Under the pieces are notes generated by a model. It was not told the origin of the DNA. It did not search any database and saw nothing but the letters and a program-made list of their open reading frames with translations. This document shows positions 8,930-31,281 of a stretch of 32,000 nt of DNA, piece by piece (the first letter of the stretch is position 1; every line of letters starts with the position of its first letter). Made by a program: the position numbers and the translations under genes. The DNA comes from an uncultured Alphaproteobacteria bacterium. Lineage in GTDB: Bacteria > Pseudomonadota > Alphaproteobacteria > Rs-D84 > CACZYB01. Location: NCBI GenBank assembly GCA_934246625.1, contig CAKQHZ010000002.1, forward strand, positions 120,001 through 152,000, read 5' to 3'.

Positions 8930-8990
8930 TTTACGTCCTATATATTATAGGAATAAAATCTACAGATATTTTTTATTTTGTCAAGGTTAT

Positions 8991-16931: not shown

Positions 16932-17267
16932 TGGTCTTCCTTTCTTTTTTACATAAAAAAGCCACACTTGTCCTTGTGTGGTCGGGTAGTTAGTCGAATC
17001 TTACAATAAAATTCCTATGGCTTTTGGAAAAAAAATTTCCCTGTTCTATAACCATAGCTACCCGACTTTTTAAAGTCAGGTAGTTTGGTGGTGATTACAC
17101 CTTTTTATTGTAATGGGCGACTAAACCCTAAATATAGAGACTAATCTATATTTGTTGATAGTATATATGATAAGTTTTTATGGCGCAAGTTGAAATTTTT
17201 TGTGTGAATTTTTCGTAGGGTTTTAAGATTTGTAATTGGCAAAAAATAAAGTGTTCTAAAATTGTTC

Positions 17268-17678: not shown

Positions 17679-18124
17679 TGGCTTTTATAGAAAACAGAAA
17701 TAATCAAATTCGCAAAATGAAACTTGATAATAATTTTAATAAATTAGTTTTTGCAAAAACAATTTTTAAAGTTGTTGGCGAAAATCAAAATATTGAATTG
17801 TTAAAAGCTGTTGCAAATGTTGTGATGAACAGATTTTTATATGAATATGAAATTGATGATGAAATGACTTTTGTAAAATGTATTACAAATGTAGATTTGT
17901 TTCCATGTTGGAAAAATCTTAAATCAATGGATGAAATTGATTTGCAAAATTGCTTTTTTAAAAAATGTTTTTCTTTGGCTTTAAAAATGTTGAATGGAAA
18001 AGTGGAAGATAATACTTTGTCTTCTATTAAATTTAAAAAAGTTTCTGAGTGTCCTGTATGGGCTGTGGGTTTAAAATATGTTAAGGCGATAGATGATTAT
18101 CTTTTTTACAATAATTGTGATTAA
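17675..18124 (+). CDS. SleB-like cell-wall hydrolase (candidate endolysin)
   Basis: The pattern FAKTIFKVVGENQNIELLKAVANVVMNRF resembles the Hydrolase_2/SleB N-terminal motif (LA..iygEa....g..aVa.VvlNR). Its position is coupled to the holin-like ORF. Confidence 0.45.
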   Translation: MMAFIENRNNQIRKMKLDNNFNKLVFAKTIFKVVGENQNIELLKAVANVVMNRFLYEYEIDDEMTFVKCITNVDLFPCWKNLKSMDEIDLQNCFFKKCFSLALKMLNGKVEDNTLSSIKFKKVSECPVWAVGLKYVKAIDDYLFYNNCD

Positions 18125-18145: not shown

Positions 18146-18880
18146 ATGACAGAGTTAAAAAATGATGAATTAAAAAAATCTGTGGAAAAAAAGGAAGAAA
18201 AAATTTCAAAATTAAAACCTGAAAATGTTCCTGTGAAATTTTGGAATGATGCAAATGGTGAAATTCGTGTTGATGAACTTTTGAAATCATATTTGGAATT
18301 GGAAAAAAAGTTTAGTGAAGTTTCAAAAAATAAAAATGATAAAAATATTTTGGAACTTGCTCTTGAAACAGATGTGCCTGCTGGTGAATATCAAATTGAA
18401 CTTCATCATAAACTTTTGACGATTGATGATAATGTTAATAAACGTTTGAAAGATGCAGGTTTTACAAATAAGCAAGCTCAACTTGTTTATGATTTGGGTG
18501 CTGAAATTATGATGCCTTTGATTGAGGAAATCAGCGGAGAATTTCGTATGTATCGAGAATTAGAAAAACTTGAAAAATACTTTGGTGGAGAAGAACGTTT
18601 TGATGAAATTTCACGACAAATTTCAAAGTGGGCAGAAAAAAATATTCCATCAGAAATTTATAATTCTCTTAACAAATCTTATTATGGTGTGATTGCTTTG
18701 TTTAATATGATGAATGGTGGTAATGAACCATCAATGATAAATATGGTTGGCGAAAAAGAAAATATTTTAAATGAAAAAAAATTAAAAGATATGATGAACG
18801 ATCCTCGTTATTGGAGAGATGGTGATAAAGATTTTATAAAAAAAGTTGATGATGGATTTAAAAATTTATATGACAGATAA
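18146..18880 (+). CDS. Capsid scaffolding-like protein (T7 gp9 position)
   Basis: The product is acidic and helical. Its N-terminus (PENVPVKFWNDANGEIRVDELLKSYLELEKKF) is typical of podovirus scaffold/assembly proteins. It lies upstream of the capsid gene. Confidence 0.45.
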   Translation: MTELKNDELKKSVEKKEEKISKLKPENVPVKFWNDANGEIRVDELLKSYLELEKKFSEVSKNKNDKNILELALETDVPAGEYQIELHHKLLTIDDNVNKRLKDAGFTNKQAQLVYDLGAEIMMPLIEEISGEFRMYRELEKLEKYFGGEERFDEISRQISKWAEKNIPSEIYNSLNKSYYGVIALFNMMNGGNEPSMINMVGEKENILNEKKLKDMMNDPRYWRDGDKDFIKKVDDGFKNLYDR

Positions 18881-18912
18881 TTACTTTTTTGTATTTTTTT
18901 TGATAATTTTTA

Positions 18913-18941
18913 TTGCAGTGTAATTTTGATTATGTTATACT
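18913..18941 (+). promoter_or_regulatory. Sigma70-type promoter of the Lys-rich / membrane gene cassette
   Basis: TTGCAG (18913-18918), a 17-nt spacer, then TATACT (18936-18941). Confidence 0.45.
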
Positions 18942-18974
18942 AAACTTGTCTTTTGTTAAATAGGAGAGAGAAAT

Positions 18975-19316
18975 ATGTTTAAAAGTATAATTAAAAAAGC
19001 TAAATCTACTGCTAAAAAAGTTGAAACAAAAAAGGCAGAAGTTAAAAAGGCACCTGCAAAAAAAGTTGCAGTAAAAAAAGTAGCTGAAAAGAAAGCTCCA
19101 GCTAAGAAAGTAGTTGCTAAAAAGGCACCTGCAAAAAAAGTTGCAGTAAAAAAAGTGGCTGTGAAAAAAGCTCCTGCTAAAAAAGTAGTTGCTAAAAAAG
19201 CACCTGCAAAAAAAGTAGTTGTAAAAAAAATCGTAGTTAAAAAAGCATCTGTTAAAACTACTTCTGTAAAAAAAACAGTTAAACCAGTTGCAAAAAAAAA
19301 AGTAGCAAAGAAGTAG
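18975..19316 (+). CDS. Lys/Ala/Val-rich histone-H1-like basic protein
   Basis: The 113-aa product is almost entirely KKAPAKKVAVKKVA-type repeats. This composition is typical of H1-like/AlgP-like DNA-binding tails. A GGAGAGAG ribosome-binding site precedes the ATG. Confidence 0.6.
   Translation: MFKSIIKKAKSTAKKVETKKAEVKKAPAKKVAVKKVAEKKAPAKKVVAKKAPAKKVAVKKVAVKKAPAKKVVAKKAPAKKVVVKKIVVKKASVKTTSVKKTVKPVAKKKVAKK
19047..19229 (+). repeat. 75-bp (25-codon) tandem repeat, about 2.4 copies, inside the Lys-rich gene
   Basis: Copy 1 is 19047-19121 and copy 2 is 19122-19196, differing at a few positions. A partial third copy runs from 19197. Confidence 0.85.
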
Positions 19317-19330
19317 TTGTTGATATTTCT

Positions 19331-19891
19331 TTGGTAAAATCAAATCCCAATAAAAAGGGTGATGAGGTAGTTCAAAAGAAAACTTCATTACTTTCTTCTT
19401 TGTTGGGATTTTTTTATACGAAAACAAAAAAAATACTTAGTGTTTATTTGTCTTTGGTTGTAATTTTTTCTTTTGCATTTGCATTTTACAAAGAACTTAA
19501 GGTTTATAGTTTAGTTCGTTTTGCAATGAACCCATTGGAAATTATGTTTATAAGTGTTGTTGGTGCAGTATTCTTGATTATTAAATTATTTATACCTGTT
19601 TTAATTGTTGTGGTTATTGCAAAATTATTTATGTTAAAGTCAAGAAAAATAAAGGTTCAACCAAAATTTAAAAAAAGTTTTAAAAGACAAACTTTGATTG
19701 CATTTGTGGTTTCATTTATTTTTGCAACTTTGTTTTATTATGATGTTGTTTTGGTTGCAAAATTTTCTCCACAACTTGTAAAATCTTCTGTTGAATTATT
19801 TGTGTTATTTTTTATATCTGTTTTATTTACTTTGTCTTCTATGTATGGTGTTATCAAAGGAGTTGCACCAGTTTTGGAAGAAAAAAAATAA
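19331..19891 (+). CDS. Polytopic membrane protein; start uncertain, possibly expressed as a -1 frameshift fusion with the upstream Lys-rich ORF
   Basis: It has four to five hydrophobic helices. The only upstream start is a TTG with no Shine-Dalgarno sequence. The first in-frame ATG would delete two helices. This frame is open back into the A10 tract at 19292-19301. Confidence 0.5.
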   Translation: MVKSNPNKKGDEVVQKKTSLLSSLLGFFYTKTKKILSVYLSLVVIFSFAFAFYKELKVYSLVRFAMNPLEIMFISVVGAVFLIIKLFIPVLIVVVIAKLFMLKSRKIKVQPKFKKSFKRQTLIAFVVSFIFATLFYYDVVLVAKFSPQLVKSSVELFVLFFISVLFTLSSMYGVIKGVAPVLEEKK

Positions 19892-19928
19892 TTCGATATA
19901 CTTTTTAATTATACTTTGTAAAGTTTAA

Positions 19929-19955
19929 AATCCGTCAGTTTTTGGCGGATTTTTA
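19929..19955 (+). terminator. Intrinsic terminator after the membrane-protein gene
   Basis: The stem AATCCGTC / GGCGGATT (8 bp including one G-U pair) has a 7-nt loop and is followed by a T-run. Confidence 0.5.
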
Positions 19956-20011
19956 ATTTTGCAAATAATACTTGCAAAAATTGGGATAACATTTTTTTGC
20001 CCCATTTTACC

Positions 20012-20036
20012 GACCCTTTTATGGGTCTTTTTTTTA
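20012..20036 (+). terminator. Terminator-like hairpin in the capsid-gene leader
   Basis: The stem GACCC / GGGTC has a 6-nt loop and is followed by a T9 run. AAGGAG and ATG 20059 follow. Confidence 0.5.
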
Positions 20037-20058
20037 ACAATAAAAAAGGAGATAAAAT

Positions 20059-20895
20059 ATGTCAATTTCTATTGATCAATCTTTTATAAAACAGTTTGAA
20101 GCAGAAGTTCATCTTGCTTTTCAACAAATGGGAACAAAACTTCGTTCTACTGTAAGAACAAAAAATGATGTAAAGGGAAGTTCAACAACTTTTCAAAAAG
20201 TAGGTAAGGGAACTGCAACTACAAAGGCAAGACACGGACTTGTTCCTGTGATGAATTTGGACCATACTCCTGTTGAATGTGTGCTTTCTGATTTCTATGC
20301 TGGTGATTGGATTGATGAGCTTGATGAAATCAAAACAAATGTTGATGAACGTCGTGTTGTTGCAAGTGCTGGTGCCTATGCTTTGGGTCGCAAAAGTGAT
20401 GAACTTATTATTTCAGAACTTAATCAAGCAAATGTGTCTGTTGCAATGGGTGATACTGGTTTAACAAAGGCAAAAATTCTTTCTGCTTTGGAATTACTTA
20501 ACAATAGCGATGTGCCAGATGATGGTCAAAGATTTGCAGTTGTTGGTGTGCATCAATGGAATGAACTTTTGAATATGAAAGAATTTTCTTCTGCGGAATA
20601 TGTTGGTGATACTTATCCTTTACTTAAGGGAACAGAAACAAGAAAATGGCTTGGCATAAATTGGATTATGCATAATGCTTTGCCATTTGATGAAAAAACA
20701 AAAGCAAGAAATTGCTTTATATATCACAAAAATTCTGTGGGTCATGCATCTGGTTGTGATGTGAAAACTGATATTACATGGCATGGTGAAAGGGCTGCGC
20801 ACTTTATTTCAAATTGTATGAGCCAAGGTGCAAAACTTATTGATAACACAGGTGTTGTGAAAATTATTTGTAAAGATACTTCTGTAATTGCTTAA
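20059..20895 (+). CDS. Major capsid protein (T7 gp10-like pattern)
   Basis: The pattern matches remembered T7 gp10A. The N-terminal FIKQFEAEVHLAFQQ...STTFQKVGKG resembles FLKVFGGEVLTAFAR...SAQFPVLGR. The central AGAYALGRKSDELIISEL and C-terminal YHKNSVGHA resemble MHRSAVGTV. It follows the scaffold-like gene. Confidence 0.75.
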   Translation: MSISIDQSFIKQFEAEVHLAFQQMGTKLRSTVRTKNDVKGSSTTFQKVGKGTATTKARHGLVPVMNLDHTPVECVLSDFYAGDWIDELDEIKTNVDERRVVASAGAYALGRKSDELIISELNQANVSVAMGDTGLTKAKILSALELLNNSDVPDDGQRFAVVGVHQWNELLNMKEFSSAEYVGDTYPLLKGTETRKWLGINWIMHNALPFDEKTKARNCFIYHKNSVGHASGCDVKTDITWHGERAAHFISNCMSQGAKLIDNTGVVKIICKDTSVIA

Positions 20896-20916
20896 CTTTA
20901 ACAAAAGGAAATAAAA

Positions 20917-21165
20917 ATGGCTATTGATTCAAAAAATTTATCTGTACTTGCTTACTCAAATGGATTTACTTTGTGGCATTATAAAACAACCGATACAAAA
21001 ACTGTTGTTGAAACATCAGGTTATTTTGATAAGGTTGCGAATATTTTTAACGAAGGCGATATGATTTTTACATCTGTGCTTGGTGGTGATACAAAGCAAA
21101 CAATTATTTATATTGTAAGTTCTGTTGAAAATGGTGTGGTTAGTGTTTCTAACTTACTTGCTTAA
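20917..21165 (+). CDS. Small protein downstream of the capsid gene (possible head accessory / decoration protein)
   Basis: The 82-aa ORF has a good ribosome-binding site (AAGGAA). The assignment rests on position only. Confidence 0.3.
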   Translation: MAIDSKNLSVLAYSNGFTLWHYKTTDTKTVVETSGYFDKVANIFNEGDMIFTSVLGGDTKQTIIYIVSSVENGVVSVSNLLA

Positions 21166-21177
21166 TTTAGTGTGATA

Positions 21178-21203
21178 AATCCCCAGTTTTGGGGATTTTT
21201 TTT
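21178..21203 (+). terminator. Strong intrinsic terminator after the capsid block (positionally analogous to T7 T-phi)
   Basis: The stem AATCCCC / GGGGATT has a 6-nt loop and is followed by a T8 run. The run ends directly at the AAGGAG of the next gene. Confidence 0.7.
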
Positions 21204-21215
21204 AAGGAGAAATTT

Positions 21216-21773
21216 ATGAATAATTTTACAATGATTGATTTGTGTTCAAAGGCTTTGCATAAAATTGGAGCAAATGAAATTGTTTCGTTTGATGAAAATA
21301 CTCCTGAAGCAGAATTAAGTAAAAGTATTTATCCTGTTTTAAAAAGGAAATTGCTTTCATCTTTTGTATGGAGTTTTGCAACAAAAGTTTTAAAACTTTC
21401 ATTGATAGAAGATGAAAATCAAACAGAGTTTCAATATTGTTTTTTGCTTCCATCTGATTTTATAAGAGCGATTAAAATATCACCAAAAGTTCCATATAAA
21501 ATTATTGAAAATAAATTGGTTGCGAATGTGTCTGATATAGTATTGACGTATGTTTCTGATGTTGATGAGGAAAATTTTTCACCTGCATTTTTAAATGCGT
21601 TTATTTATATTTTGTCCGCAGAATTATCTCTTTCTTTGTTGGACGATGTAGCAAAATTTAATTTGTTTTATCGACTTTATAATTCAGAATTAAGAGAGGC
21701 AAGATTTTTGGATAGTGCACAAGAAACGGCAAAACATTTTGATAATTTTTCTTTAATTGATGTAAGGTATTAG
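21216..21773 (+). CDS. Tail tubular protein A / adaptor (T7 gp11-like)
   Basis: I place the start at ATG 21216 after AAGGAG; the track start 21189 lies inside the terminator. The N-terminus IDLCSKALHKIGANEIVSFDENTPEAELSKSIY...FVWSFA parallels T7 gp11 [31 protein letters not shown]...GWTFN. Its size is also similar to that of gp11. Confidence 0.6.
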   Translation: MNNFTMIDLCSKALHKIGANEIVSFDENTPEAELSKSIYPVLKRKLLSSFVWSFATKVLKLSLIEDENQTEFQYCFLLPSDFIRAIKISPKVPYKIIENKLVANVSDIVLTYVSDVDEENFSPAFLNAFIYILSAELSLSLLDDVAKFNLFYRLYNSELREARFLDSAQETAKHFDNFSLIDVRY

Positions 21774-21781
21774 GTGTTGGT

Positions 21782-23686
21782 ATGTATAAACAAATTATTT
21801 CAAATACAAATTTTGCGTTTGGTGAAATTTCTCCTTATCTTTTTGGAAGGGGAGATATTGAGGCATATAAAAATGGTGCTATGACTATGTCAAATATGAC
21901 AGTTATTCCCACAGGTGGAGTTAAGCGTCGAGCAGGATTAAAGTTTTTGTGTGATTTGCCAAATGCTGGAAAATTGATAAATTTTGATTACTCTTCTTTG
22001 GAAAATTTTTTACTTTATTTCAGTGAAAATATTTTGTGGATTTATAATAGCATTGGTGAAAAGGTTGCAAGTCTTATGACTCCATTTTCCATTGCTCAAT
22101 TATCAAATATACGATGGTCGCAAAAGGGAAATCAATTATATATTGTGCATAAAGATGTTGCACCAAAAGTTTTGAAATATTATCCTCTTGAAGATAATTG
22201 GATTTTGGAAGATTGGCAATATGCGGTAAGTGATAAAAACTTTTCTTGTGAACCATTTGCAAAGTTTGAAGACACAGAAAATATTATGATTACTCCGTCT
22301 GGAAAAACTGGTGAAATTTCATTGGTTTCATCACAAAGTTTGTTTGATAATTCGTTTTTGGGTATTAAACTTCTTATTGATGGAGGTGAAGTTTGTATTA
22401 CTCAAATAATTTCTGGAACAGAGGCAAAGGCTGTTGTAAAAGCAGAATTGAGTGCTTTGGTTGCAACTTCTTCTTGGCAAGAACAGGCATTTTCGCTTAA
22501 GCGTGGTTTCCCAAAAAGTATTGCATTTCATCAAAACAGATTGGTGATTGGTGGGTCAAAAAGTTTGGCGAATAGATTGTGGTTTTCAAAAACAGGAGAA
22601 TATTTTAATTTTGATTTGGGTGAAGGTCTTGATGACGAAGCGATTGAGTTTGATTTATTGTCAGACAGAGTTAATGAAATTTTGTGTGTTTTTTCAGGAA
22701 AGCATTTACAAATTTTTACATCAGATTCTGAATGGATGGTGTCTGGGTATCCATTGACACCAACTTCATTGACGGTAAAGCAACAAACCAAAATTGGTTC
22801 TGTGGCAGATAAATTTATTTCACCAAAACTTGTTGAAGGTTCAACTATATTTGTTGCAAAAAACAACAAAGAAATTCGAGAATTTTTTTATGGAGATATT
22901 TCTGAAAATTATTCGTCCGAAGATTTAATTTTGCTTTCAAATCATTTAATGAATAAACCAAAAGAATTGGATTACGATATTAAAAACCGAATGCTTTATG
23001 TTTTGCAAAGTGATGGGACTATATCAATATTGCTTACAAATAAAACCAATGCTATAAATGCGTGGTTTAAGTATGAAACTCAAGGTGAATTTATTTCGCT
23101 TAATGTGTTTAATAATACTTTATATGTTATTGTTAAACGAGATGATAAGTATTTTTTAGAGTATTTGTCCGATGATGTGATGACAGATTCTTCTTTGACT
23201 TTTTCTTTTGATACAAAGGTTGATAAGATTGTTGGAATTTCACATTTGAACAATAAAATTGTTAGTGTTAATGCGGATAATTATGTTTTTGATGTAAAGG
23301 TTGAAAATAATGAACTTATACTTCCTTTGTCAGCAAAAAATGTTTTTTTGGGATTAAGTTATACACATACTTTGTGTCCGTTGCCAGTGTTAATAAATGG
23401 GGTTGTCCCACCAAAAATTGTGCGACTTTTTGAGTTGACTTTTCGTGTGGTTGATACTCCTTTATTACAAATTGATACTGGTGATGGAATAAGAAATATT
23501 ACTTGTATGGATTTTGATAAGGATAATATCCTTGATAATTCGTTGGTGCCATTTAATGGTGATATTCATATCAAAGCAAAAGGTTTGATTAAAAATTTTG
23601 AAGTCCCATTATGGAAGGTGCAAAGTTCAAAACCTTATAATGTAAAAATTTTAAATATTTCTGCAAAAATTGGTAGTGTAAAATAG
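21782..23686 (+). CDS. Tail tubular protein B / nozzle (T7 gp12-like)
   Basis: The N-terminus FAFGEISPYLFGRGD resembles gp12 LKGGISQQPDILRYPD. FHQNRLVIGGSKSLANRLWFSKTGEYFNFD resembles gp12 FFRNRLGFLSGENIILSRTAKYFNFY. It follows the gp11-like gene. Confidence 0.7.
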   Translation: MYKQIISNTNFAFGEISPYLFGRGDIEAYKNGAMTMSNMTVIPTGGVKRRAGLKFLCDLPNAGKLINFDYSSLENFLLYFSENILWIYNSIGEKVASLMTPFSIAQLSNIRWSQKGNQLYIVHKDVAPKVLKYYPLEDNWILEDWQYAVSDKNFSCEPFAKFEDTENIMITPSGKTGEISLVSSQSLFDNSFLGIKLLIDGGEVCITQIISGTEAKAVVKAELSALVATSSWQEQAFSLKRGFPKSIAFHQNRLVIGGSKSLANRLWFSKTGEYFNFDLGEGLDDEAIEFDLLSDRVNEILCVFSGKHLQIFTSDSEWMVSGYPLTPTSLTVKQQTKIGSVADKFISPKLVEGSTIFVAKNNKEIREFFYGDISENYSSEDLILLSNHLMNKPKELDYDIKNRMLYVLQSDGTISILLTNKTNAINAWFKYETQGEFISLNVFNNTLYVIVKRDDKYFLEYLSDDVMTDSSLTFSFDTKVDKIVGISHLNNKIVSVNADNYVFDVKVENNELILPLSAKNVFLGLSYTHTLCPLPVLINGVVPPKIVRLFELTFRVVDTPLLQIDTGDGIRNITCMDFDKDNILDNSLVPFNGDIHIKAKGLIKNFEVPLWKVQSSKPYNVKILNISAKIGSVK

Positions 23687-23707
23687 GTTAAATGAAAGGA
23701 TAATAAT

Positions 23708-24154
23708 ATGGGAGCAAGTGCTGGTGTTGCCGCAGTTCTTACTGCTGCGGATAGTATTATTGATTATAGAGAAAAAAAGAAGCAACAAAAGGCAAATGAA
23801 AAATTATTAAATCAACAACAGGAAGTCAAGGAAGAAGAAAATGAAATAAAAAAACAAATTTTAAAAGATGAAAAGACAAATTTGCTTAAAACAAAATTGG
23901 CTTCGCAAAAGGCAAAGTTAGGTGCAAGTGGACTTGTGTCAACAACTGGGTCTTCGGCTGCTTATCTTTCAAGTTTGGAAAAGGATACAGATGAGGAAAT
24001 TTTGAAAAAAACTTCGCTTAGTGATTTGAATTTATTAAATGAAACGGCAAATTATGATTACAGAAAAAAGCTAAATTTATTAGATCAAGCAAAGAATGAT
24101 TATGATTTTTCAAAAGGCTTGGTTAATAACATTTTTTCAAAAAAATTATTTTAG
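23708..24154 (+). CDS. Coiled-coil protein with hydrophobic N-terminus (possible small internal virion protein)
   Basis: It lies between the gp12-like and gp17-like genes, where T7 encodes its internal proteins. At 148 aa it is Lys/Glu-rich. No motif was found. Confidence 0.3.
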   Translation: MGASAGVAAVLTAADSIIDYREKKKQQKANEKLLNQQQEVKEEENEIKKQILKDEKTNLLKTKLASQKAKLGASGLVSTTGSSAAYLSSLEKDTDEEILKKTSLSDLNLLNETANYDYRKKLNLLDQAKNDYDFSKGLVNNIFSKKLF

Positions 24155-24166
24155 GAGAGTTATGTT

Positions 24167-24889
24167 ATGGGTAAAAATAGTTTAGTAAAACATATATATA
24201 TTTGTGATGGTGTGCAAAAAAATTTTGACTATCAATTTGAAAGTTTTTCAAAAACAAGTATAAAAGTTTTTATTGATAACTTGATGATAAAATCTGGGTA
24301 TGAGATAGTTCCATTTTCTGACAAGGTTGGTGGAAAAATTATTTTTAATACTCCTCCTTTGAAAGGGAAAGTTTTATCGATTATTCGTGAGTTAGATTTT
24401 TCACGAAGTTGTGATTTTCAAACAGGTGGAATTTTTCGTGCTGAAGATTTGAACTATGAACTTAACTATAATATTGCTTGTCTTAATCAAGTCAATGATG
24501 TTTTAACTTTGGCAGTTAAACTTTCACCACTTGATACAAAAATAAATCCAGTATTGCCAAAGGCAAAAGCAGGCTATGCAATTGTTTGGAATGATACAGA
24601 AGATGGATTTTCAAATTTAGATGTTAATATTACAGAGCAAGTTCGTTATGTTGAAGATTGCACAAATCTTGTTGAAAATCTTTATAATGATTTAAGTGAT
24701 TTATTTGCAAGCAATTCTGATATAGGAGTATTGGGGTTTGTGAATAATTTGCTTACGATTTTAAAAGAACATCATGGTGAAGCGTTTGTTGATTTTCAAA
24801 ATCTTAATTGTGTAGCAAATGATGTTATTGATTTTGGAAATGTGTCTGATGAATCACAAATTAGTGTGAAAGATAATGGAATACTTTGA
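24167..24889 (+). CDS. Tail fibre protein with T7 gp17-type N-terminal tail-attachment domain
   Basis: HIYICDGVQKNFDYQFE...IKVFIDN...IIRELDFSRSCDFQTGGIFRAEDLNYELN parallels gp17 LTYQLDGSNRDFNIPFEY...VVVTLIG...RVTSTTDRLVDFTDGSILRAYDLNVAQ. Confidence 0.7.
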   Translation: MGKNSLVKHIYICDGVQKNFDYQFESFSKTSIKVFIDNLMIKSGYEIVPFSDKVGGKIIFNTPPLKGKVLSIIRELDFSRSCDFQTGGIFRAEDLNYELNYNIACLNQVNDVLTLAVKLSPLDTKINPVLPKAKAGYAIVWNDTEDGFSNLDVNITEQVRYVEDCTNLVENLYNDLSDLFASNSDIGVLGFVNNLLTILKEHHGEAFVDFQNLNCVANDVIDFGNVSDESQISVKDNGIL

Positions 24890-25484
24890 TAAAAAAATCA
24901 GTTTTTTGGATTTTTTGAAAGATTGGTATAAAACTCAGGGACTTTTGTTTCCAGAACATCATAAAAAAATTGCAAAATGGTTGGAGAGTGTTTATTTTTC
25001 TGATAAAAAGCGAGGGCTTTTGCTTGCTTTTCGAAGTAGTGGAAAGTCAACGGTGGTTGGGCTTTTTTGTTCGTGGCTTTTGTATATAAATCCGAATTTA
25101 AGGATTTTGGTTGTTGCAGCAGATACTATGTTGGCAAAAAAGATGGTGCGAAATATCAAATATATTGTTGAACTTCACCCATTATTGGAAAGTATTAGAC
25201 CAAAGAAAAAGCAAGAATGGGCATCTGGAAGTTTTACCGTGGAAAGAAATTTGGTGTTAAGGGACCCATCTGTGATGGCTGTGGGACTTTTATCAAATTC
25301 GACTGGAAGCAGGGCTGATGTTATTATTTGTGATGATGTGGAGGTGCCAAAAAATTGTGATACTTATCAAAAACGGTGTGATTTGAGAGAGAAATTGTTG
25401 GAGTTTAATTTTATTTTGGTGCCTAATGGTATGCAAATTTTTATTGGGACACCGCATACTTTGGATACTATTTATAAAGTTTAG
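24876..25484 (+). CDS. Large terminase, N-terminal ATPase half only
   Basis: It has Walker A (AFRSSGKST), Walker B (ADVIICDDVE) and the coupling motif (FIGTPHT). The ORF stops 8 codons after the GTP motif. It overlaps the fibre gene by 14 nt. Confidence 0.75.
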   Translation: MEYFDKKISFLDFLKDWYKTQGLLFPEHHKKIAKWLESVYFSDKKRGLLLAFRSSGKSTVVGLFCSWLLYINPNLRILVVAADTMLAKKMVRNIKYIVELHPLLESIRPKKKQEWASGSFTVERNLVLRDPSVMAVGLLSNSTGSRADVIICDDVEVPKNCDTYQKRCDLREKLLEFNFILVPNGMQIFIGTPHTLDTIYKV

Positions 25485-25545
25485 TATTGATTTTAGGGGA
25501 ATTTTTTAGTTGTTTTATACAAAAAAATATTTTTTTAAAATTTTA

Positions 25546-25573
25546 TTGACAAATTCGAATTAGTTTGTATAAT
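25546..25573 (+). promoter_or_regulatory. Near-consensus sigma70 promoter of sRNA candidate 1
   Basis: TTGACA (25546-25551), a 16-nt spacer, then TATAAT (25568-25573). Confidence 0.6.
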
Positions 25574-25579
25574 GAGGTT

Positions 25580-25710
25580 GTTTCGTTAATAAGAAAAAAG
25601 AATTTGCCGAGACGACCCCTCATTTCGGCAGATCTGGTGAAAGCCAGTAATAATCCCCTAAGTCATTCCCTCCTTATTTTCTCTCTCCTCGACTTGGGGG
25701 ATATTTTTTT
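25580..25710 (+). ncRNA. sRNA candidate 1: about 130 nt, three hairpins, with a terminator hairpin carrying a 26-nt CU-rich (anti-Shine-Dalgarno-like) loop
   Basis: A consensus promoter lies upstream. Hairpins are GCCGA...TCGGC and CTGG tgaaag CCAG. The third stem is TCCCCTAAGTC (25654-25664) / GACTTGGGGGA (25691-25701) around the loop ATTCCCTCCTTATTTTCTCTCTCCTC, followed by a T-run. Confidence 0.5.
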
Positions 25711-25792
25711 GTCGGGACGCCCGAGTAATCTCACAAAGGCAAACTAGAATTTTCTACTAACCCCGTAGAAAATTAAGTTTTTGTTTGTTCGG

Positions 25793-25825
25793 TTTCTCTC
25801 TCCTCGACTTGGGGGATATTTTTTT
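25793..25825 (+). ncRNA. Second copy of the 33-nt CU-rich / GGGGGA / T-run 3' module (3' end of sRNA candidate 2)
   Basis: TTTCTCTCTCCTCGACTTGGGGGATATTTTTTT is identical at 25678-25710 and 25793-25825. A 10-bp hairpin (AATTTTCTAC / GTAGAAAATT) precedes it. Confidence 0.4.
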
Positions 25826-26220
25826 AGTTCAGAAAAGTTAGGATTTGTGAGCTTTTGTTGTGTTTTTGAGGGAAAATAGTCAAATTTGTAAAAAATGTGT
25901 GAAAAATTAGAATTTTCTGTTGAAATTTTGGTTTTAAATTGCTAAAAAAGAATCAGTTTTTGAAAAGATTCTCGAATCGATAGTAAAATTTAAAAAAAAG
26001 AATCGATTCTTGGTGGTTTTTTAAGGTTTTATTTTATAGACAATTTGAAATTGCAAAAAGAATCTTTTAATTTTTAATATGTTGTTTTTACAGCATTCTT
26101 TTTTGTTTTTTGATGGCTAATAAGTTGCCAAAAAAAGAATCTCTTGACTTTTTTTGTCGATTGCTTTAAGAATCGTTGTATGAGGCGAGTGGAAATTTTC
26201 CATTTTGTTTCAAACATATT

Positions 26221-26280
26221 CCCTGTTGCGTTCCTTTTCTCTCCTTTCCTCCTTCTCTCCTCGCAACGGGGGATTTTTTT
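26221..26280 (+). ncRNA. sRNA candidate 3 terminator module with a 31-nt CU-rich loop
   Basis: The stem CCCTGTTGCG (26221-26230) / CGCAACGGG (26262-26270) has one bulge. It encloses TTCCTTTTCTCTCCTTTCCTCCTTCTCTCCT and is followed by GGA and a T7 run. Confidence 0.45.
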
Positions 26281-26554
26281 ATACTTGAGTTTTTTTCTGA
26301 CTGATTCCCTTCGTTAATGTCTCACTTACGATTTGTTAAGATGCTAGTTTTTTGCAGGGTGGCGTGGCAACAAGCTAAGCAAACCTAAAACTTTTCACTA
26401 ATGCCGTTCAAAGTTTAAGGATAGCTATGCTTGGTGTCTCTTCGCAACGGGGGATTTTTTTTATATAATCTCTTCTCAAGATAGTTAAATTTGCATAAAA
26501 TGAAAAAAATAACTTGCGTTTTGGGAAAATATAGGTTATAAACTTGTTATCTTT

Positions 26555-26630
26555 GGCTAGGTAGCTCAGTCGGTAGAGCAAAGGACTGAAAATCCTTGTG
26601 TCGGCAGTTCGATTCTGCCCCTCGCCACCA
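26555..26630 (+). tRNA. tRNA-Phe (anticodon GAA) with encoded CCA
   Basis: A 76-nt cloverleaf was folded by hand. It has D arm GCTC/GAGC, anticodon stem AAGGA/TCCTT with loop CTGAAAA, a 5-nt variable loop, and T arm GGCAG-TTCGATT-CTGCC. The acceptor stem has 6 of 7 pairs (U4-C69 mismatch) and ends ACCA. Confidence 0.85.
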
Positions 26631-26663
26631 TTATTGGTCCCCCGTTTGGGGGATTTTTTATTT

Positions 26664-26969
26664 GTGTCGGCAGTTCGATTGTCCTCGTGATTGAAAATCA
26701 CTCGTTCGTCCCGTAAGCCTAAAACTTCGCCAAAGGCTCGTGTTTAGGCAACTATCGACTCCTGCCCCTCGCCACCACTATTGGTCCCTCATTTGGGGGA
26801 TTTTTTATTTGTGTCGGCAGTTCGATTGTCCTCGTGATTGAAAATCACTCGTTCGTCCCGTAAGCCTAAAACTTCGCCAAAGGCTCGTGTTTAGGCAACT
26901 ATCGACTCCTGCCCCTCGCCACCATTATTGGTCCCCCGCTTGGGGGATTTTTTATTTGTGTCGGCAGTT
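26664..26969 (+). repeat. 147-bp tandem repeat (2 full copies plus a 12-nt stub) made of the tRNA-Phe 3' part interrupted in the T-loop by an 81-bp insert, plus a terminator hairpin
   Basis: GTGTCGGCAGTTCGATT recurs at 26598 (in the tRNA), 26664, 26811 and 26958. Each full unit is this 17-mer, an 81-nt insert, CTGCCCCTCGCCACCA, and CCCCCgtttGGGGG with a T-run. A degenerate older unit lies at about 26290-26470. Confidence 0.9.
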
Positions 26970-27038
26970 TATTGACTTTTAAACCTTCGTTAAATGAGTT
27001 TGATGTCATATAGTTTCTTTGCAAAGTAAGGCAAAACC

Positions 27039-27047
27039 TGTGGATAA
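27039..27047. promoter_or_regulatory. Perfect DnaA-box 9-mer upstream of ftsZ
   Basis: TGTGGATAA is the reverse complement of the consensus TTATCCACA. It lies 91 nt upstream of the ftsZ ATG. It is a single site, so a chance occurrence cannot be excluded. Confidence 0.35.
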
Positions 27048-27079
27048 AAGTTTTTTTTCTTAATTTTTGTTTTCTTTTC

Positions 27080-27108
27080 TTAACATTTGGCTTTTTTTAT
27101 GCTATAGT
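27080..27108 (+). promoter_or_regulatory. Candidate ftsZ promoter
   Basis: TTAACA (27080-27085), a 17-nt spacer, then TATAGT (27103-27108). Confidence 0.35.
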
Positions 27109-27137
27109 TTATTTGAGAAAAAATTAAGGAGAGAGAT

Positions 27138-28820
27138 ATGATAGGAGAAGGAAACTTCGGCTATAATTCACAAAATGATGATGAAATTCAAAATTTTATT
27201 CCACGAATCACTGTAATGGGTGTTGGTGGTGCTGGTTGTAATGCTGTTGGCAATATGATTTCTCAAGGTATTGATGGTGTGGATTTTGTTGTGGCAAATA
27301 CTGATGCTCAATCTTTGATGTTGTCAAAGGCTCCTCGTAAAATTCAACTTGGAAAACAAACTACTCGTGGATTTGGTGCTGGCTCAAAACCAGAAGTTGG
27401 TAAAACTGCGGCTGAAGAATCTTTGAATGAAATTGCAGATGTCGTTAAAAATGCAAATATTCTTTTCTTGACTGGTGGTATGGGTGGTGGAACTGGAAGT
27501 GGTGCTATACCTGTGATTGCATCTGTGGCAAAGGAAAAGGGAATTTTGACTATTGCAATTATTACAACTCCTTTTGATTTTGAAGGTGAAAAGAAAAAAC
27601 GTATTGCAGAGGAGGCAATAGCTGAATTACTTCCTAATGTGGATTGTGTTATTACTTTGCCAAATCAAAATTTGTTCAAGGTTGCGGATAAACAAATGTC
27701 ATTTATCAATGCCTTTAAACTTTCTGATAATGTCCTTTATGAAGGTGTTAGAAATATTACAGATTTGATTATGAAACCTGGTTTGATTAACCTTGATTTC
27801 GCAGATATAAGAACTGTGATGGAAGGTCAGGGAAAAACCATTATTGGAACAAGTGTTCAAAGTGGTGAAGATAGGGCATTGAAAGCAGTGAAGGGTGCTT
27901 TGCTTAATCCTCTTCTTTCTAATGAAAGTATTAGTGGGGCAAAGGGTATTTTGGTAAATATTACTGGTAATGCTGATAATCTTTCTTTGGAAGAAGTTAA
28001 TGATATTATGAATACAATTCGTGCCGATATAAATTCAAATGATGTTAATTTCGGCTTTGGAACTTGCTTTGACCCATCTATGGGTGATAGCTTGAAAGTT
28101 GCTATTATTGCAACTGGTATTAACGGTGATAATGTTAAAACAGATGTAAATACAACAAAAACAGAAGTTAATAATACTTCTTATAATTCATTTAATAATG
28201 TTGCAACTTCTAAACCTTACTCATTTACAAATATTGAAGAAAAAAAAGAAGAAGTTCGTGTTGAGCCAAAACCAATGGAAAAGCCTATGCCTAGTTTTAT
28301 GGAAGAAACAGTTGTAAGTGATAATAAACTTGATAATTTCTTTAAAACCGGTGATGAAAAGGATATTCAAGCCTTTATTGATGAGGAAGCAGAAAAACTT
28401 AATGTCGCAAGTTCTGTTTCAAATGAACTTTTTTCTGATGAAAAAAATAGTATTTTAGATAGTAATGAAGATACTTCTTCTTTGGATAATGTATCTTTGA
28501 ATGGCAATGGTGATGATGACCATGATCCTGAACCACCAAAGGGAAAAAAGAAAAATCCTTTGTCTTCTTTCTTTGATATGATTGGTGAAAAGGATAGTGA
28601 TGATACTTTTTTTGATGATGTGGAAAAAGATGATAATGGTGATGTAAAATTTGAAAATCAATCTGAAATATCAGATAAAAAAGAAGATGATAATGTCGTT
28701 TTCTTGGCTGGAAATTTGGATACAAAGGACCCAGATGATAAGCAAATTGATTTGATGGAAATGATAAAGAAAATGGAAGAAACTTTGGAAATTCCTGCGA
28801 TATTTAAAAAAGGTTCATAA
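27138..28820 (+). CDS. ftsZ: Cell-division protein FtsZ with a long acidic C-terminal linker
   Basis: It has GVGGAGCNAV and the tubulin signature GGMGGGTGSGA. An Asp/Glu/Asn-rich linker of about 230 aa follows. The conserved C-terminal peptide is LEIPAIFKK. Confidence 0.95.
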   Translation: MIGEGNFGYNSQNDDEIQNFIPRITVMGVGGAGCNAVGNMISQGIDGVDFVVANTDAQSLMLSKAPRKIQLGKQTTRGFGAGSKPEVGKTAAEESLNEIADVVKNANILFLTGGMGGGTGSGAIPVIASVAKEKGILTIAIITTPFDFEGEKKKRIAEEAIAELLPNVDCVITLPNQNLFKVADKQMSFINAFKLSDNVLYEGVRNITDLIMKPGLINLDFADIRTVMEGQGKTIIGTSVQSGEDRALKAVKGALLNPLLSNESISGAKGILVNITGNADNLSLEEVNDIMNTIRADINSNDVNFGFGTCFDPSMGDSLKVAIIATGINGDNVKTDVNTTKTEVNNTSYNSFNNVATSKPYSFTNIEEKKEEVRVEPKPMEKPMPSFMEETVVSDNKLDNFFKTGDEKDIQAFIDEEAEKLNVASSVSNELFSDEKNSILDSNEDTSSLDNVSLNGNGDDDHDPEPPKGKKKNPLSSFFDMIGEKDSDDTFFDDVEKDDNGDVKFENQSEISDKKEDDNVVFLAGNLDTKDPDDKQIDLMEMIKKMEETLEIPAIFKKGS

Positions 28821-28840
28821 AAATAATTTTTTAAACTTTG

Positions 28841-28875
28841 TCCCCCTTTGATTTTTTTCAAAGGGGGATTTTTTT
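28841..28875 (+). terminator. Strong intrinsic terminator after ftsZ, 9 nt before the portal-gene Shine-Dalgarno sequence
   Basis: A perfect 11-bp stem (TCCCCCTTTGA 28841-28851 / TCAAAGGGGGA 28858-28868) has a 6-nt loop and a T7 run. AAGGAG lies at 28885-28890. Confidence 0.8.
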
Positions 28876-28895
28876 AACTTAAATAAGGAGTTAAT

Positions 28896-30392
28896 ATGAT
28901 TGAAAAGGAAATTTTTGATAAAAATTTTGTTGATGATGTCTATAACAGATATTTGAATGCAATAGAGAAAAGGTCAGTGTGGGAAAGTTATTGGGAAGAA
29001 TGTTATGAATATGCTTTGCCACAAAAAAGTGGAACTTTTAATGGTGAAAATTTTTCTAATGTAAAGAAAAATACAAATGTTTTTGATTCCACTGCGGAAT
29101 CTGCAGTTGACAGACTTGCAAGTAGTCTTCTTTCCCAACTTACTCCACCATGGTCAAAATGGTTTGGGTTGGAATTTGGTATTGATATAGCTGATGATGA
29201 TAAAAAGGAAAAGTATCTTCAACTTGAAAATATTGAAAAGATTTTGCAATCTCATTTGGATAGGTCAAATTTTTATGTGGAAGCTCATCAATGCTATTTG
29301 GATTTAATTACGGTTGGAACTGCGGTTATGTTATTTGAAGAAAATGCAGTAGGTGAAAATTCCGCATTTAAGTTTACTTCTGTGCCAATGAATGAAGTTG
29401 CGTTTGAAGAAAATACGAATGGAAAGTTGGATACTGTATTTCGTCGTTCTTATGTCTCACTTGCAAATTTAAAAATAAGGTTTGCCAATGTTATTTTTGA
29501 TGAAAAACAACAGGAAATTATTTCCAAAAACCTTGATAAAAAAGTGTATGTGATAGAGGCTGTGTTGCCACGAATAACTTCTTCTGGACAACAGGGATAT
29601 AATTATATTGCGTTTATTGATGATGTAGAAAATATTTTTAATAGCTCTGTTAAAATAATTCTTAAAACAGGAGTATTTGCAAATTCTCCGTTTATTTGTT
29701 TCAGATGGCAAAAGGTTAGTTCTGAAATTTATGGAAGGTCTCCTGTGATGAAGGCTTTGCCAGATATTAAAACCGCAAATAAAGTTGTGGAACTTATTCT
29801 TAAAAATGCGTCTATTGCAGTAAGTGGTATTTGGCAAGCAGATGATGATGGCGTTTTGAATCCGCAAAATATAACTCTTGCTCCAGGAACAATTATTCCA
29901 AAGGCAGTTGGTTCTAGTGGGCTTACTCCACTTAGAAGTGGTGCCGATTTTGATGTTTCTCAGTTGGTATTGTCTGATTTGCGTGCAAAGATAAATCATT
30001 GTTTACTTGTGGATCAATTAGATGTGTCAAATAATTTTAAAATGACTGCAACAGAAGTGATGGAAAGAATAAATCAAATATCTCGTGTGTTGGGGGCAAC
30101 CTATGGCAGACTTCAATCTGAATTTTTGACACCTGTGGTTATTCGTGCAATTTCTATTTTAAAAAGACGTGGTGAAATTTCAGATATACTTGTTAATGGA
30201 TATGAAGTTGATTTGAAATATCAATCTCCACTTGCTCAAAATCAAATTGTTCGTGATGCAGAAAATATTTTGAATTGGATAAAAACTTTGTCAGAAGTGT
30301 GTGGTGATGCAACAAGTGTTATTGATAAAAAAGCGGTTGCGTTATATTTGGGAAAAGTTTTTGGTATTTCAGAACGATTGATTTGTGCATAG
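28896..30392 (+). CDS. Portal / head-to-tail connector protein (T7 gp8-like)
   Basis: VDDVYNRYLNAIEKRSVWESYWEECYEYALP parallels gp8 AKSVYERLKNDRAPYETRAQNCAQYTIP. YGRSPVMKALPDIKTANKV parallels YGRSYIEEYLGDLRSLENL. MTATEVMERINQISRVLGATYGRLQSEFLTPVV parallels VTAEEIRYVASELEDTLGGVYSILSQELQLPLV. Confidence 0.8.
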   Translation: MIEKEIFDKNFVDDVYNRYLNAIEKRSVWESYWEECYEYALPQKSGTFNGENFSNVKKNTNVFDSTAESAVDRLASSLLSQLTPPWSKWFGLEFGIDIADDDKKEKYLQLENIEKILQSHLDRSNFYVEAHQCYLDLITVGTAVMLFEENAVGENSAFKFTSVPMNEVAFEENTNGKLDTVFRRSYVSLANLKIRFANVIFDEKQQEIISKNLDKKVYVIEAVLPRITSSGQQGYNYIAFIDDVENIFNSSVKIILKTGVFANSPFICFRWQKVSSEIYGRSPVMKALPDIKTANKVVELILKNASIAVSGIWQADDDGVLNPQNITLAPGTIIPKAVGSSGLTPLRSGADFDVSQLVLSDLRAKINHCLLVDQLDVSNNFKMTATEVMERINQISRVLGATYGRLQSEFLTPVVIRAISILKRRGEISDILVNGYEVDLKYQSPLAQNQIVRDAENILNWIKTLSEVCGDATSVIDKKAVALYLGKVFGISERLICA

Positions 30393-30402
30393 TGAGGATA
30401 TT

Positions 30403-31281
30403 ATGGAGGAAGATTTTAGCTTGCCTTTTTTGGCTGGGTTTGATGTCCTTAAAATTCCAGTTATTGAAAATGGGATTCCTGTATGGCCTGAAAAATTCCC
30501 GATTGAAAAAATTGAGGAATTAAAGGTTCGGGTTGGAATGACAAAATTTTCTTCGCAAATGCTACTTAATCCTGTGCAATTAAATAAAGGGCGATTTGAT
30601 ATAAACAAGTTAAAATTTTATAATTCTGATTTGTGTGTAGAGGAACATAATCACCTTTTGACCTTTACAATAAATGGTAAAAAAGTTGTCAGTTGTTCGT
30701 GTTGGTGGGATCCTTCGTATGGTTCAATCGGTGGTGATGGAAGTGTTATATCTGTTGTCTTTATTGATGTGGAAGGGCATTACTATCTTCATGACATAAA
30801 ATATCTTTATCATTCGGATAAGAAAAAGGAAGAAATTCAATCGGCATTGGAACAATGTCAGCAGGTTGGTGAGTTTGTTAAGGCAAACTATATACCTTCG
30901 GTTTATGTTGAAACGAATGGTATTGGTAAATTTTTACCAGAGTTTTTAAGAAATGAGTTTTTGAAAATGGGAATTTCCGCTGGGGTTGTTGAAAAGGTTT
31001 CTAGGGTTTCAAAAAATCTTAGGATTTTAGATGCTTTTGATGTGATTACTTCGGCAGGATATTTATATGTTAATGAAAAGGTGAAAAATACCCCTTGGGT
31101 TGCGGAATTTTGTGATTGGGGTGTTGATTCAAAAGCTCATGATGATGGACTTGATAGTGTGGCTGGTGCAATTTCGTCTGTGCCAGCCAAGTTGCCTATT
31201 TCTGTGTTGGCAAAACAAAGAAAAGTAAGTTTTGCAGGGAAAACGTATAGGGTAAAGACAAATTTTGATATAGACTTTTGA
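30403..31281 (+). CDS. Large terminase, C-terminal half (ATPase lid region plus RNase-H-like nuclease domain)
   Basis: It has its own GAGGA ribosome-binding site and ATG 30403; the track start is GTG 30385. It has WPEKFPIEKIEELKVRVGMTKFSSQMLLNP and nuclease motifs WWDPSYGSIGGDGSVISVVF, VYVETNGIG and AHDDGLDSVAGA. It continues where ORF 24876-25484 stops. Confidence 0.75.
   Translation: MEEDFSLPFLAGFDVLKIPVIENGIPVWPEKFPIEKIEELKVRVGMTKFSSQMLLNPVQLNKGRFDINKLKFYNSDLCVEEHNHLLTFTINGKKVVSCSCWWDPSYGSIGGDGSVISVVFIDVEGHYYLHDIKYLYHSDKKKEEIQSALEQCQQVGEFVKANYIPSVYVETNGIGKFLPEFLRNEFLKMGISAGVVEKVSRVSKNLRILDAFDVITSAGYLYVNEKVKNTPWVAEFCDWGVDSKAHDDGLDSVAGAISSVPAKLPISVLAKQRKVSFAGKTYRVKTNFDIDF

Follow-up and report, generated by a model that had tools for sequence, protein, structure and literature searches.

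An uncultured gut alphaproteobacterium carries in its chromosome a phage-derived gene cluster whose large terminase (TerL) is divided between two genes. The 32,000 nt stretch analysed here (contig CAKQHZ010000002.1, positions 120,001 to 152,000; hereafter the window) is bacterial chromosome, from a host with about 31% G+C, in which approximately 12 kb of T7-like head, tail and lysis genes lie amid housekeeping genes. Two of its open reading frames (ORFs), here called TerL-N and TerL-C, are probably the two pieces of a single T7-type large terminase, and would constitute a long-standing two-gene enzyme, associated non-covalently, within a domesticated element that resembles a gene transfer agent (GTA). 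The first-pass annotation of the sequence had named a functional two-piece terminase, a gene inactivated by rearrangement and a misassembly as the possibilities, and it is the first of these that gains support, from a breakpoint shared between species and from purifying selection on both pieces.

The first piece, TerL-N (24876-25484, + strand), is a 202 aa protein with an ATG start, and carries the ATPase core. It matches positions 1-189 of the NCBIfam profile NF033889 (termin_lrg_T7; 500 positions, curated cutoff 150 bits) at 249 bits (E=7.8e-74), and aligns over residues 41-211 with the T7-type TerL 8dgc (E=1.7e-25). The motifs originally assigned to this ORF are all present, namely Walker A (AFRSSGKST, with G56, K57 and S58), Walker B (ADVIICDDVE, with D153, D154 and E156) and motif III (FIGTPHT, with G191, T192 and P193), as is the early stop, which falls seven residues past FIGTPHT (LDTIYKV, then stop) within the variable loop that follows TIY. 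Across 18 N-halves, the GKS, DDxE and GTP residues are invariant, and the frame closes two to three residues past TIY in every sequence except P0081, in which nine residues follow. The ORF coordinates confirm a 14 nt overlap between TerL-N and the fibre gene upstream (24167-24889). Tight coupling of this kind had been taken as a sign of an old arrangement; the age of the arrangement is upheld by the comparisons given below, but coupling of the N-half to its upstream gene is also seen in intact relatives, and is therefore ancestral and carries no evidence on the split itself.

The second piece, TerL-C (30394-31281, + strand, including the ribosome-binding site), is a 292 aa protein read from an ATG at 30403, with a GAGGA Shine-Dalgarno sequence at 30394-30398; the mechanically called ORF opens at a GTG at 30385, and the ATG was taken as the gene start. 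TerL-C matches positions 232-500 of NF033889 (E=2.9e-35) and contains WPEKFPIEKIEEL, FSSQMLLNP, WWDPSYGSIGGDG, VYVETNGIG and AHDDGLDS, with the motif cores WPEKFP, SQMLLNP, WWDPS, VETNGIG and HDDGLD. Its first approximately 60 aa form a beta-strand and the ATPase lid, and are followed by an RNase H-like nuclease and a disordered C-terminal tail; both the nuclease motifs and the lid region had been placed correctly in this half. The acidic residues of the nuclease (D103, E170 and D247/D248/D251 in C-half numbering) are invariant in 50 C-halves or intact proteins. An AlphaFold2 model of TerL-C alone had a predicted local distance difference test score (pLDDT) of 84.8, and a Foldseek search with that model returned the T7-type TerL chain 8dgc_E (E=1.8e-11), along with two nuclease domains, those of RB49 gp17 and Sf6 gp2. 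A single-sequence search of TerL-C against PDB sequences gave chance matches only, and it took the family profile and the predicted structure to recognize the protein, which public records label ‘hypothetical protein’.

Directly upstream of TerL-C lies the gene for the portal, or head-tail connector (28896-30392, + strand; 498 aa), which matches PF12236 over its full length (E=1.9e-119) and ends with TAG. The first-pass annotation was right that the second half has a GAGGA sequence and an ATG of its own, but the distance from the portal stop to that ATG is 10 nt, and not the 11 nt that it gave. The same interval is 2-38 nt in all seven species of the clade to which the window belongs, and a Shine-Dalgarno sequence and ATG precede and open every C-half examined, in all of the split lineages. 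The portal gene itself is displaced from its usual site upstream of the scaffold gene, the order in intact relatives being portal, Bbp19, scaffold.

As first proposed, the two pieces add up to one normal TerL. Together they comprise 494 aa (202 plus 292), which is the size of intact relatives (470-509 aa), and leave uncovered only the variable linker of NF033889 between positions 189 and 232. When joined, they are collinear across the junction both with single-chain phage TerLs and with 67 intact alphaproteobacterial TerLs. Where intact relatives have an unconserved stretch of 2-22 residues from TIY to PFL, TerL-N of the window ends two residues past TIY and TerL-C opens seven residues before PFL, the C-halves of other split forms starting up to about 10 residues before it. 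The class features of a T7-type TerL (NF033889, or PF03237 plus PF22530) are thus present, with an ASCE ATPase core bearing Walker A, Walker B and motif III and, at the C terminus, an RNase H-like nuclease whose acidic residues are conserved, except that the usual single polypeptide of about 470-590 aa is replaced by two ORFs, each with its own stop and start, 4.9 kb apart. The likeness to T7 gp19 and the PhiV-1 TerL (8dgc, 4bij) extends to family, fold, motifs, lid, acidic-triad nuclease and flexible C-terminal tail, the difference being that a T7-type TerL is one gene, whereas here there are two, cut within the ATPase domain.

The position of the cut was judged from a model in which the two ORFs of the window were joined end to end, with intact homologues as the alignment input. 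The fused model (pLDDT 87.8) matched TerL structures along its whole length, including 8dgc_E (E=4.8e-29) and T4 gp17 (E=1.5e-12). In it, the strand formed by residues 181-191 ends at motif III and residues 196-215 are coil; the block 201-210 has a pLDDT of 66, against 89-97 on either side, and is the sole dip in the first 260 residues. Past the junction come a confidently modelled strand at 216-220, lid helices at 236-255 and the nuclease from near residue 270. Crystal structures of the ATPase domain only (T4 gp17 and P74-26) cover 250-279 columns of the model, more than the 202 residues of TerL-N. On this layout and coverage, the cut falls within the ATPase domain and not at its boundary with the nuclease; it lies past the motif III strand, in a surface loop that is variable and modelled with low confidence. 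The original description of an ATPase half and a nuclease half holds in that there are two pieces, but the division is not a clean one, as the second piece also supplies a beta-strand and the lid. Consistent with this, the first approximately 60 residues of TerL-C have a pLDDT of 65-76 when modelled alone and of 87-96 when TerL-N is present.

The split is shared by many assemblies and species. The exact TerL-N protein was read on 21 contigs from differing samples, with the same gene order throughout; these include at least six independent assemblies, contigs of 94 kb and 116 kb and Hadza gut metagenomes. A scan that used one genome per species found a TerL-N relative in at least 579 genomes, and the proteins of the window were placed on the best 80 of these loci to map layout and reading frames. 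The terL gene is split in at least 13 species-level genomes, while 67 of the best 80 loci encode an intact TerL of 455-504 aa. The clade of the window comprises seven species with TerL-N proteins 74-87% identical, all with the arrangement of the window, and this arrangement recurs in two further genomes, L009 and L031, in which TerL-N is 63-64% identical. In all of these, TerL-C follows the portal stop at a distance of 2-161 nt and the halves are 3.3-8.7 kb apart, usually with ftsZ between them. Three other genomes (L022, L065 and L101) encode the halves as separate adjacent ORFs with a gap of 260-390 nt. A promoter lies in this gap, together with one or two hairpins that each lead into a U run and whose CU-rich loops resemble an anti-Shine-Dalgarno sequence. 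A further clade, represented by L091 and L092 and abundant in gut metagenomes, has the order fibre, TerL-N, three opposite-strand genes, TerL-C, portal and Bbp19; the opposite-strand genes include the host replicative helicase gene dnaB and a helix-turn-helix (HTH) gene (L091, 10615-13864; L092, 10582-13901).

The breakpoint is common to the window clade and two further divergent clades, and both pieces are kept together in 12 of 13 species wherever the contigs are long enough. The earlier conclusion that the arrangement is old rather than a fresh break is borne out by this same breakpoint in many independent assemblies and species. A single intact terL at the locus in sister genomes, which a synteny comparison might have revealed, was not seen in the seven species of the window clade, all of which are split, though 67 of the 80 wider relatives are intact. 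Nor did any assembly with a split gene have a further, intact locus within the 80 best matches, a result limited by the incompleteness of metagenome-assembled genomes (MAGs). In a neighbour-joining tree of the concatenated halves, all split TerLs formed one bipartition against the intact ones in 97 of 100 bootstraps, which fits a single origin of the split forms. The notion that split forms dominate the family, which 102 of the 120 best N-half homologues (230 aa or shorter, none of the 120 full length) might suggest, was discarded as the product of a biased sample, given the 67 intact loci among 80 genomic relatives; a search of representatives at 50% identity likewise returned mostly intact proteins of 480-510 aa. 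The best 80 relatives are alphaproteobacterial or unclassified MAGs, cultured relatives (Thalassospira, Magnetospirillum, Caenispirillum, Telmatospirillum and Micavibrio) carry an intact TerL, and the TerLs of the nearest isolated phages are only 25-31% identical. Among the ‘viral’ contigs of IMG/VR, related ones range in length from 4 to 48 kb and mostly measure 10-25 kb.

Both pieces are conserved genes, and purifying selection acts on them with the same strength as on the portal, the capsid and ftsZ. Ratios of non-synonymous to synonymous divergence (dN/dS), calculated by the Nei-Gojobori method over ten species or strain pairs (with dS at approximately 0.8-1.8 in the between-species pairs), were 0.06-0.11 for TerL-N and 0.10-0.16 for TerL-C, compared with 0.06-0.16 for the portal, 0.07-0.15 for the capsid, 0.08-0.22 for ftsZ and 0.07-0.5 for the head and tail genes (18146-24889). 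Split and intact relatives do not differ in how far the N-half has diverged relative to the C-half, and the second piece therefore bears no sign of relaxed constraint. Across at least 13 species, neither half has a frameshift or premature stop. Inactivating mutations in relatives, which the first-pass annotation had named as a ground for refutation, are thus not seen, the frames being open and the motifs invariant.

Our data are consistent with a model in which TerL-N, with its core of Walker A, Walker B and motif III, and TerL-C would assemble non-covalently by complementation between fragments of the ATPase domain, and so rebuild an active DNA-packaging ATPase and nuclease. Translation of TerL-N would be coupled to that of the fibre gene; TerL-C, which starts 10 nt past the portal stop, would therefore be made together with its docking partner. 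Dissection of T4 gp17 by Kanamaru and colleagues reportedly showed the ATPase and nuclease modules to be separable, the experimental cut being made at the domain linker; the natural cut in the window lies approximately 60 residues earlier, inside the ATPase domain, where complementation of the strand and lid could hold the pieces together. The closest parallel is the ribonucleotide reductase NrdA of phage Aeh1, a case of ‘genes in pieces’ in which, as reportedly described by Friedrich and colleagues in 2007, insertion of a mobile or foreign gene created two ORFs whose products reassemble non-covalently into a functional enzyme. The same mechanism is proposed here for the terminase, with the difference that in Aeh1 the inserted gene encodes a homing endonuclease and the halves are adjacent, whereas in the window a small-RNA gene stands at the break and the halves are kilobases apart.

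The main remaining rival is that both pieces are functional but act separately, TerL-C as a nuclease associated with the portal and TerL-N as an incomplete ATPase with another partner or role. We consider this unlikely. In its favour, terminators and host genes put the two genes in different transcription contexts, and TerL-C has become linked to the portal in more than one way, the portal gene coming first in the window clade and second in L091 and L092. One MAG, ZodW_Metabat.18 (L028, 10001-11936), has TerL-N, 22 nt and then the portal gene, with its other structural genes scrambled and with TerL-N unaccompanied by a TerL-C within 10 kb; here the second half could have been lost or moved to a distant site. 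Against independent roles, TerL-N lacks the lid and the next strand of its own ATPase domain, and the opening 60 residues of TerL-C are confidently folded in the models only in the presence of TerL-N. The co-retention of the pieces in 12 of 13 species, a ratio of N-half to C-half divergence like that of intact TerLs and the invariance of all the catalytic residues, of ATPase and nuclease alike, also speak for a joint enzyme.

The pseudogene, misassembly and splicing readings are essentially excluded. Splitting a terminase is usually destructive, and a cluster devoid of replication and integration genes could be what remains of a decaying prophage in which a rearrangement had disabled terL, with the ORFs as pseudogene fragments. 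Such decay is very improbable given dN/dS values of 0.06-0.16 in both halves, equal to those of ftsZ and the portal at a dS around 1 or more, together with invariant catalytic residues and motifs, intact frames in at least 13 species, a Shine-Dalgarno sequence and ATG for each C-half in every lineage, and equal conservation of the whole structural cluster; an identity range of 42-87% excludes very recent horizontal spread of one sequence. The metagenomic source of the sequence, and tandem repeats by tRNA-Phe that could mislead assemblers, would be grounds to suspect a chimeric contig of two phage copies, the misassembly raised at the outset. The chance of this is negligible, since the 21 contigs, obtained from different samples with different assemblers and including those of 94 kb and 116 kb, agree with each other, and the same order and junctions recur in MAGs of many species.

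It is barely credible that recoding, a split intein or a trans-spliced intron rejoins the halves, at the level of RNA or protein, into a normal single-chain TerL. Phage terminase genes interrupted by inteins, or by group I introns with homing endonucleases, are known, for example in Campylobacter phage IBB_35 (PMC3322345), and split-intein ‘fractured genes’ exist, as cited in PMC6892783. Those genes are likewise cut by foreign DNA, but splicing yields one protein again, whereas in the window each piece has a start and a stop of its own, and host genes lie between the two. Only two and seven residues are unaligned at the two ends, all others aligning to intact TerLs, which leaves no room for intein halves, and the locus is thus not a fractured gene of the split-intein kind. 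Neither is it an intron-interrupted terminase gene, as no Rfam intron family matches 25400-27200 at E up to 1, or the whole window at gathering score. Independently expressed host genes intervene, on the opposite strand in L091 and L092.

Several observations weigh against a joint two-piece enzyme or temper the evidence for it. Mixing of separately expressed T4 gp17 domains reportedly did not restore packaging in the hands of Kanamaru and colleagues in 2004, and a split terminase is therefore not trivially functional. The fused single-chain model speaks for the compatibility of the pieces with one fold, and no more than that. No small terminase was identified in the cluster. A strong intrinsic-terminator-like hairpin (28840-28869, + strand), with a 12 bp stem and a T run, stands between the ftsZ stop and the portal start at 28896; it lies 27 nt upstream of that start and leaves no room for a promoter, and a promoter scan found no clear promoter for the portal and TerL-C pair. 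The TerL-N gene without a nearby TerL-C in L028 belongs here too. The grouping of split forms in the tree is possibly inflated by long-branch or compositional effects, and in a tree of the N-half only, split and intact forms are not cleanly separated. Lastly, all of the sequences are metagenome assemblies. Expression of the portal and TerL-C may depend on terminator read-through or anti-termination; anti-termination control has been reported for the GTA cluster of Caulobacter (10.1101/2023.11.12.565669).

As to how a joint enzyme might have come to be encoded in two genes, CU-loop units sit at the break in several split lineages. The simplest origin would be that a small-RNA gene of this CU-loop type inserted into an intact terL, in the part that encodes the surface loop; forms with adjacent halves and a 260-390 nt gap are still found. 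Later rearrangements would have put host genes and the portal between the halves. Intact relatives share a circular order (TerL, the 95 aa protein and hydrolase, portal and Bbp19, scaffold through nozzle, fibre, TerL) that is found in two linear permutations, whereas all split forms have the hydrolase gene directly before scaffold and the portal elsewhere. From a form like that of L101, with the order fibre, TerL-N, gap, TerL-C and portal, the L091/L092 arrangement could have arisen by insertion of host genes into the gap, and that of the window clade by insertion of host DNA and exchange of TerL-C and portal. Prophage integration at tRNA-Phe, considered in view of the repeats of the tRNA 3′ end, was rejected as the cause of the split, the same break being found without the tRNA in L009, L031, L091/L092, L022, L065 and L101.

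The 4.9 kb between the halves contains small-RNA units, tRNA-Phe, repeats, the host gene ftsZ and the portal, and begins with 1.65 kb of non-coding DNA bearing the small-RNA units. Directly after the TerL-N stop, a putative small-RNA gene (25546-25712, + strand) is indicated by promoter match, fold and conservation. Its promoter, TTGACA-N16-TATAAT at 25546-25573, is a perfect sigma-70 match (12 of 12 positions), and the predicted transcript of approximately 134 nt (25579-25712) folds into three hairpins with a minimum free energy z-score of -4.5. The third hairpin is a terminator, whose 26 nt CU-rich loop AUUCCCUCCUUAUUUUCUCUCUCCUC is invariant, begins with CCCUCCUU and is anti-Shine-Dalgarno-like. 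The gene, related to the units in the gaps of L022, L065 and L101, is highly conserved in the window clade and L009; it is kept at the same site in nine species, among which hairpins 2 and 3 show compensatory changes. Such a CU-rich RNA recalls the CcsR or ‘cuckoo’ small RNAs of Alphaproteobacteria, with their CCUCCUCCC motifs. At gathering score, tRNA-Phe was the sole Rfam match in the whole window, and no intron or small-RNA family matched 25400-27200 at E up to 1; intron, transfer-messenger RNA and known small-RNA identities for the spacer were dropped accordingly.

The remainder of the non-coding stretch (25713-26554, + strand) contains hairpin and terminator units with CU-rich loops at 25793-25825, 26250-26282 and 26431-26463, members of repeat family D2. 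Between 17000 and 32000 there are 24 terminator-like sites, against 6.1 expected. The host tRNA-Phe gene (GAA anticodon; 26555-26630, + strand) was called by ARAGORN and matches RF00005 at 68 bits, and is overlapped at its end by tandem 147 nt repeats, two full and one partial (26615-26969, + strand; families D1 and D3, 95-100% identity). Each repeat consists of the 3′ end of tRNA-Phe (CTGCCCCTCGCCACCA), a terminator, the 5′ half of the T-arm and an insert of approximately 84 nt that folds within the T-stem; an attachment-site scar, a tRNA-like RNA and a mobile mini-element are all candidates for its nature. The spacer between the halves varies by up to 175 nt among strains (4597-4772 nt). The ftsZ gene (27138-28820, + strand; 560 aa) is a genuine host cell-division gene, with matches to Tubulin (E=5e-45) and FtsZ_C and a score of 356 bits against the TIGR00065 equivalog cutoff of 295.

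The phage-derived cluster opens with a putative lysis module on the + strand, a 95 aa protein (17391-17678; phrog_29007) followed by a SleB-like cell-wall hydrolase of 149 aa (17675-18124; Pfam Hydrolase_2, E=1.2e-4). In relatives, this pair sits after TerL, and in some the hydrolase adjoins a GTA_holin_3TM protein. The structural genes follow on the same strand, with matches to PHROG tail and internal virion protein families among them: scaffold (18146-18880; PF05396), p113 (18975-19316), p186 (19331-19891), capsid (20059-20895; Phage_capsid_2, PF19821, E=3e-77), p82 (20917-21165), tail tubular A (21189-21773), nozzle or tubular B (21782-23686; Phage_nozzle), an internal-virion-like protein, p148 (23708-24154), and the fibre N-terminal domain protein that overlaps TerL-N (24167-24889; Phage_T7_tail). 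After TerL-C comes p213 (from 31359, + strand), a conserved 213 aa gene that runs off the window at 32000; on longer contigs it is followed by a Bbp19-like protein of 79 aa and an HTH protein, and then by the host genes parA/mipZ-like, truA and fmt. Terminator-like hairpins also lie within the structural cluster, at 19927-20027 just before the capsid gene and at 21177-21198 just after the capsid and p82 pair, which recalls the T-phi terminator after gene 10 of T7.

The head and tail genes are T7-like, but the sequence is not a T7-type phage genome, being bacterial chromosome with ftsZ between the terminase halves. Genes for an integrase, a polymerase, a primase or a phage RNA polymerase are missing from the window and from its flanks on longer contigs, as annotated with Pfam, and the 10 kb flanks annotated in seven contexts showed nothing beyond structural, lysis and housekeeping genes, with no integrase or replication gene. 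T7-like phages have an RNA polymerase and a DNA replication module, neither of which accompanies this chromosomal cluster in the window or its flanks, and it does not qualify as a prophage of the Autographiviridae type. The relatives have contexts of the same kind, in which structural and lysis genes occupy about 9-12 kb and housekeeping genes lie on either side. Within the window clade, species with saturated synonymous sites share the accBC and parA-like flanks, and the identity ranks of ftsZ and the cluster genes run parallel. In one relative (L174), the immediate neighbour of the cluster is the S10 ribosomal protein operon; genes essential to the host (ftsZ, dnaB and the S10 operon) recur beside or within these clusters. 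In a member of the Thalassospiraceae with an intact TerL (L007), genes for a CDP-alcohol phosphatidyltransferase and a radical SAM protein lie between the fibre-like gene and terL (6609-9414).

As the cluster is stably chromosomal and no integrase or replication genes were seen, it is likely, judging from gene content and context, to be a domesticated, GTA-like element of podovirus type rather than a prophage. GTAs of the RcGTA type, including those of Caulobacter and Bartonella, are likewise chromosome-fixed clusters of head, tail and lysis genes without visible integrase or replication genes, and likewise lie amid housekeeping genes, under purifying selection and in several transcription units; the presence of GTA_holin_3TM beside the hydrolase in relatives is a further likeness. 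The chromosomal structural cluster without an integrase, replication genes or a lysogeny module, found in seven contexts, is GTA-like, as are stable vertical inheritance and purifying selection within the window clade (dN/dS 0.06-0.35 at a dS around 1). RcGTA is of HK97 or siphovirus type, whereas the cluster in the window is of T7 or podovirus type (Phage_capsid_2, nozzle, tubular A and T7 scaffold); with a PF19821 capsid, a PF12236 portal and no genes of the RcGTA g2-g15 type, it falls outside the RcGTA-like family. In the papers searched we found no split terminase in any GTA, and no account of the present arrangement, be it as a split terminase, as a T7- or podovirus-like alphaproteobacterial GTA or as a cryptic T7-like prophage. 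FpGTA of Faecalibacterium prausnitzii has been called the first podovirus-like GTA-like element (2026; PMC12946183); it too is gut-bacterial, probably podovirus-like, GTA-like and encoded in more than one locus, but its host belongs to the Firmicutes rather than the Alphaproteobacteria, the likeness being one of description only. The alphaproteobacterial T7-like cluster appears to be undescribed so far.

Large terminases are regarded as single-chain motors, and in current models the lid subdomain and the interdomain linker are mechanically involved in pushing DNA. Were the two-piece enzyme confirmed, the covalent link between the nucleotide-binding core and the lid would be dispensable in a packaging motor, and a ready-made two-piece system would be available for motor dissection. 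More tentatively, the split terminase might mark an undescribed, vertically inherited family of T7-like, GTA-like elements, a second independent domestication of a phage in the Alphaproteobacteria, in one host-associated lineage of which the motor became two subunits after the insertion of a small RNA; we consider this broader proposal possible, with chances somewhat below even. A compact T7-like cluster among essential genes (ftsZ, dnaB and ribosomal protein operons) in many Alphaproteobacteria, including members from the human and animal gut, looks like an unrecognized GTA-type element, and because the second half of the terminase is annotated ‘hypothetical protein’, such elements are scored as broken prophages.

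The first 17 kb of the window encode two-partner secretion proteins, GlmS, MltA, a TraT-like protein, AccB and AccC. The two-partner secretion locus (20-4564) comprises a filamentous-haemagglutinin-repeat protein cut by the start of the window, three small ORFs and a transporter of the FhaC/ShlB type. Two cysteine-rich proteins, at 11069-11788 (+ strand) and 16467-16967 (- strand), have weak matches to the eukaryote-type Ephrin_rec_like and TNFR-like repeats, which fits a host-associated lifestyle; the copy at 16467-16967 varies in length by strain, from 127 to 143 aa.

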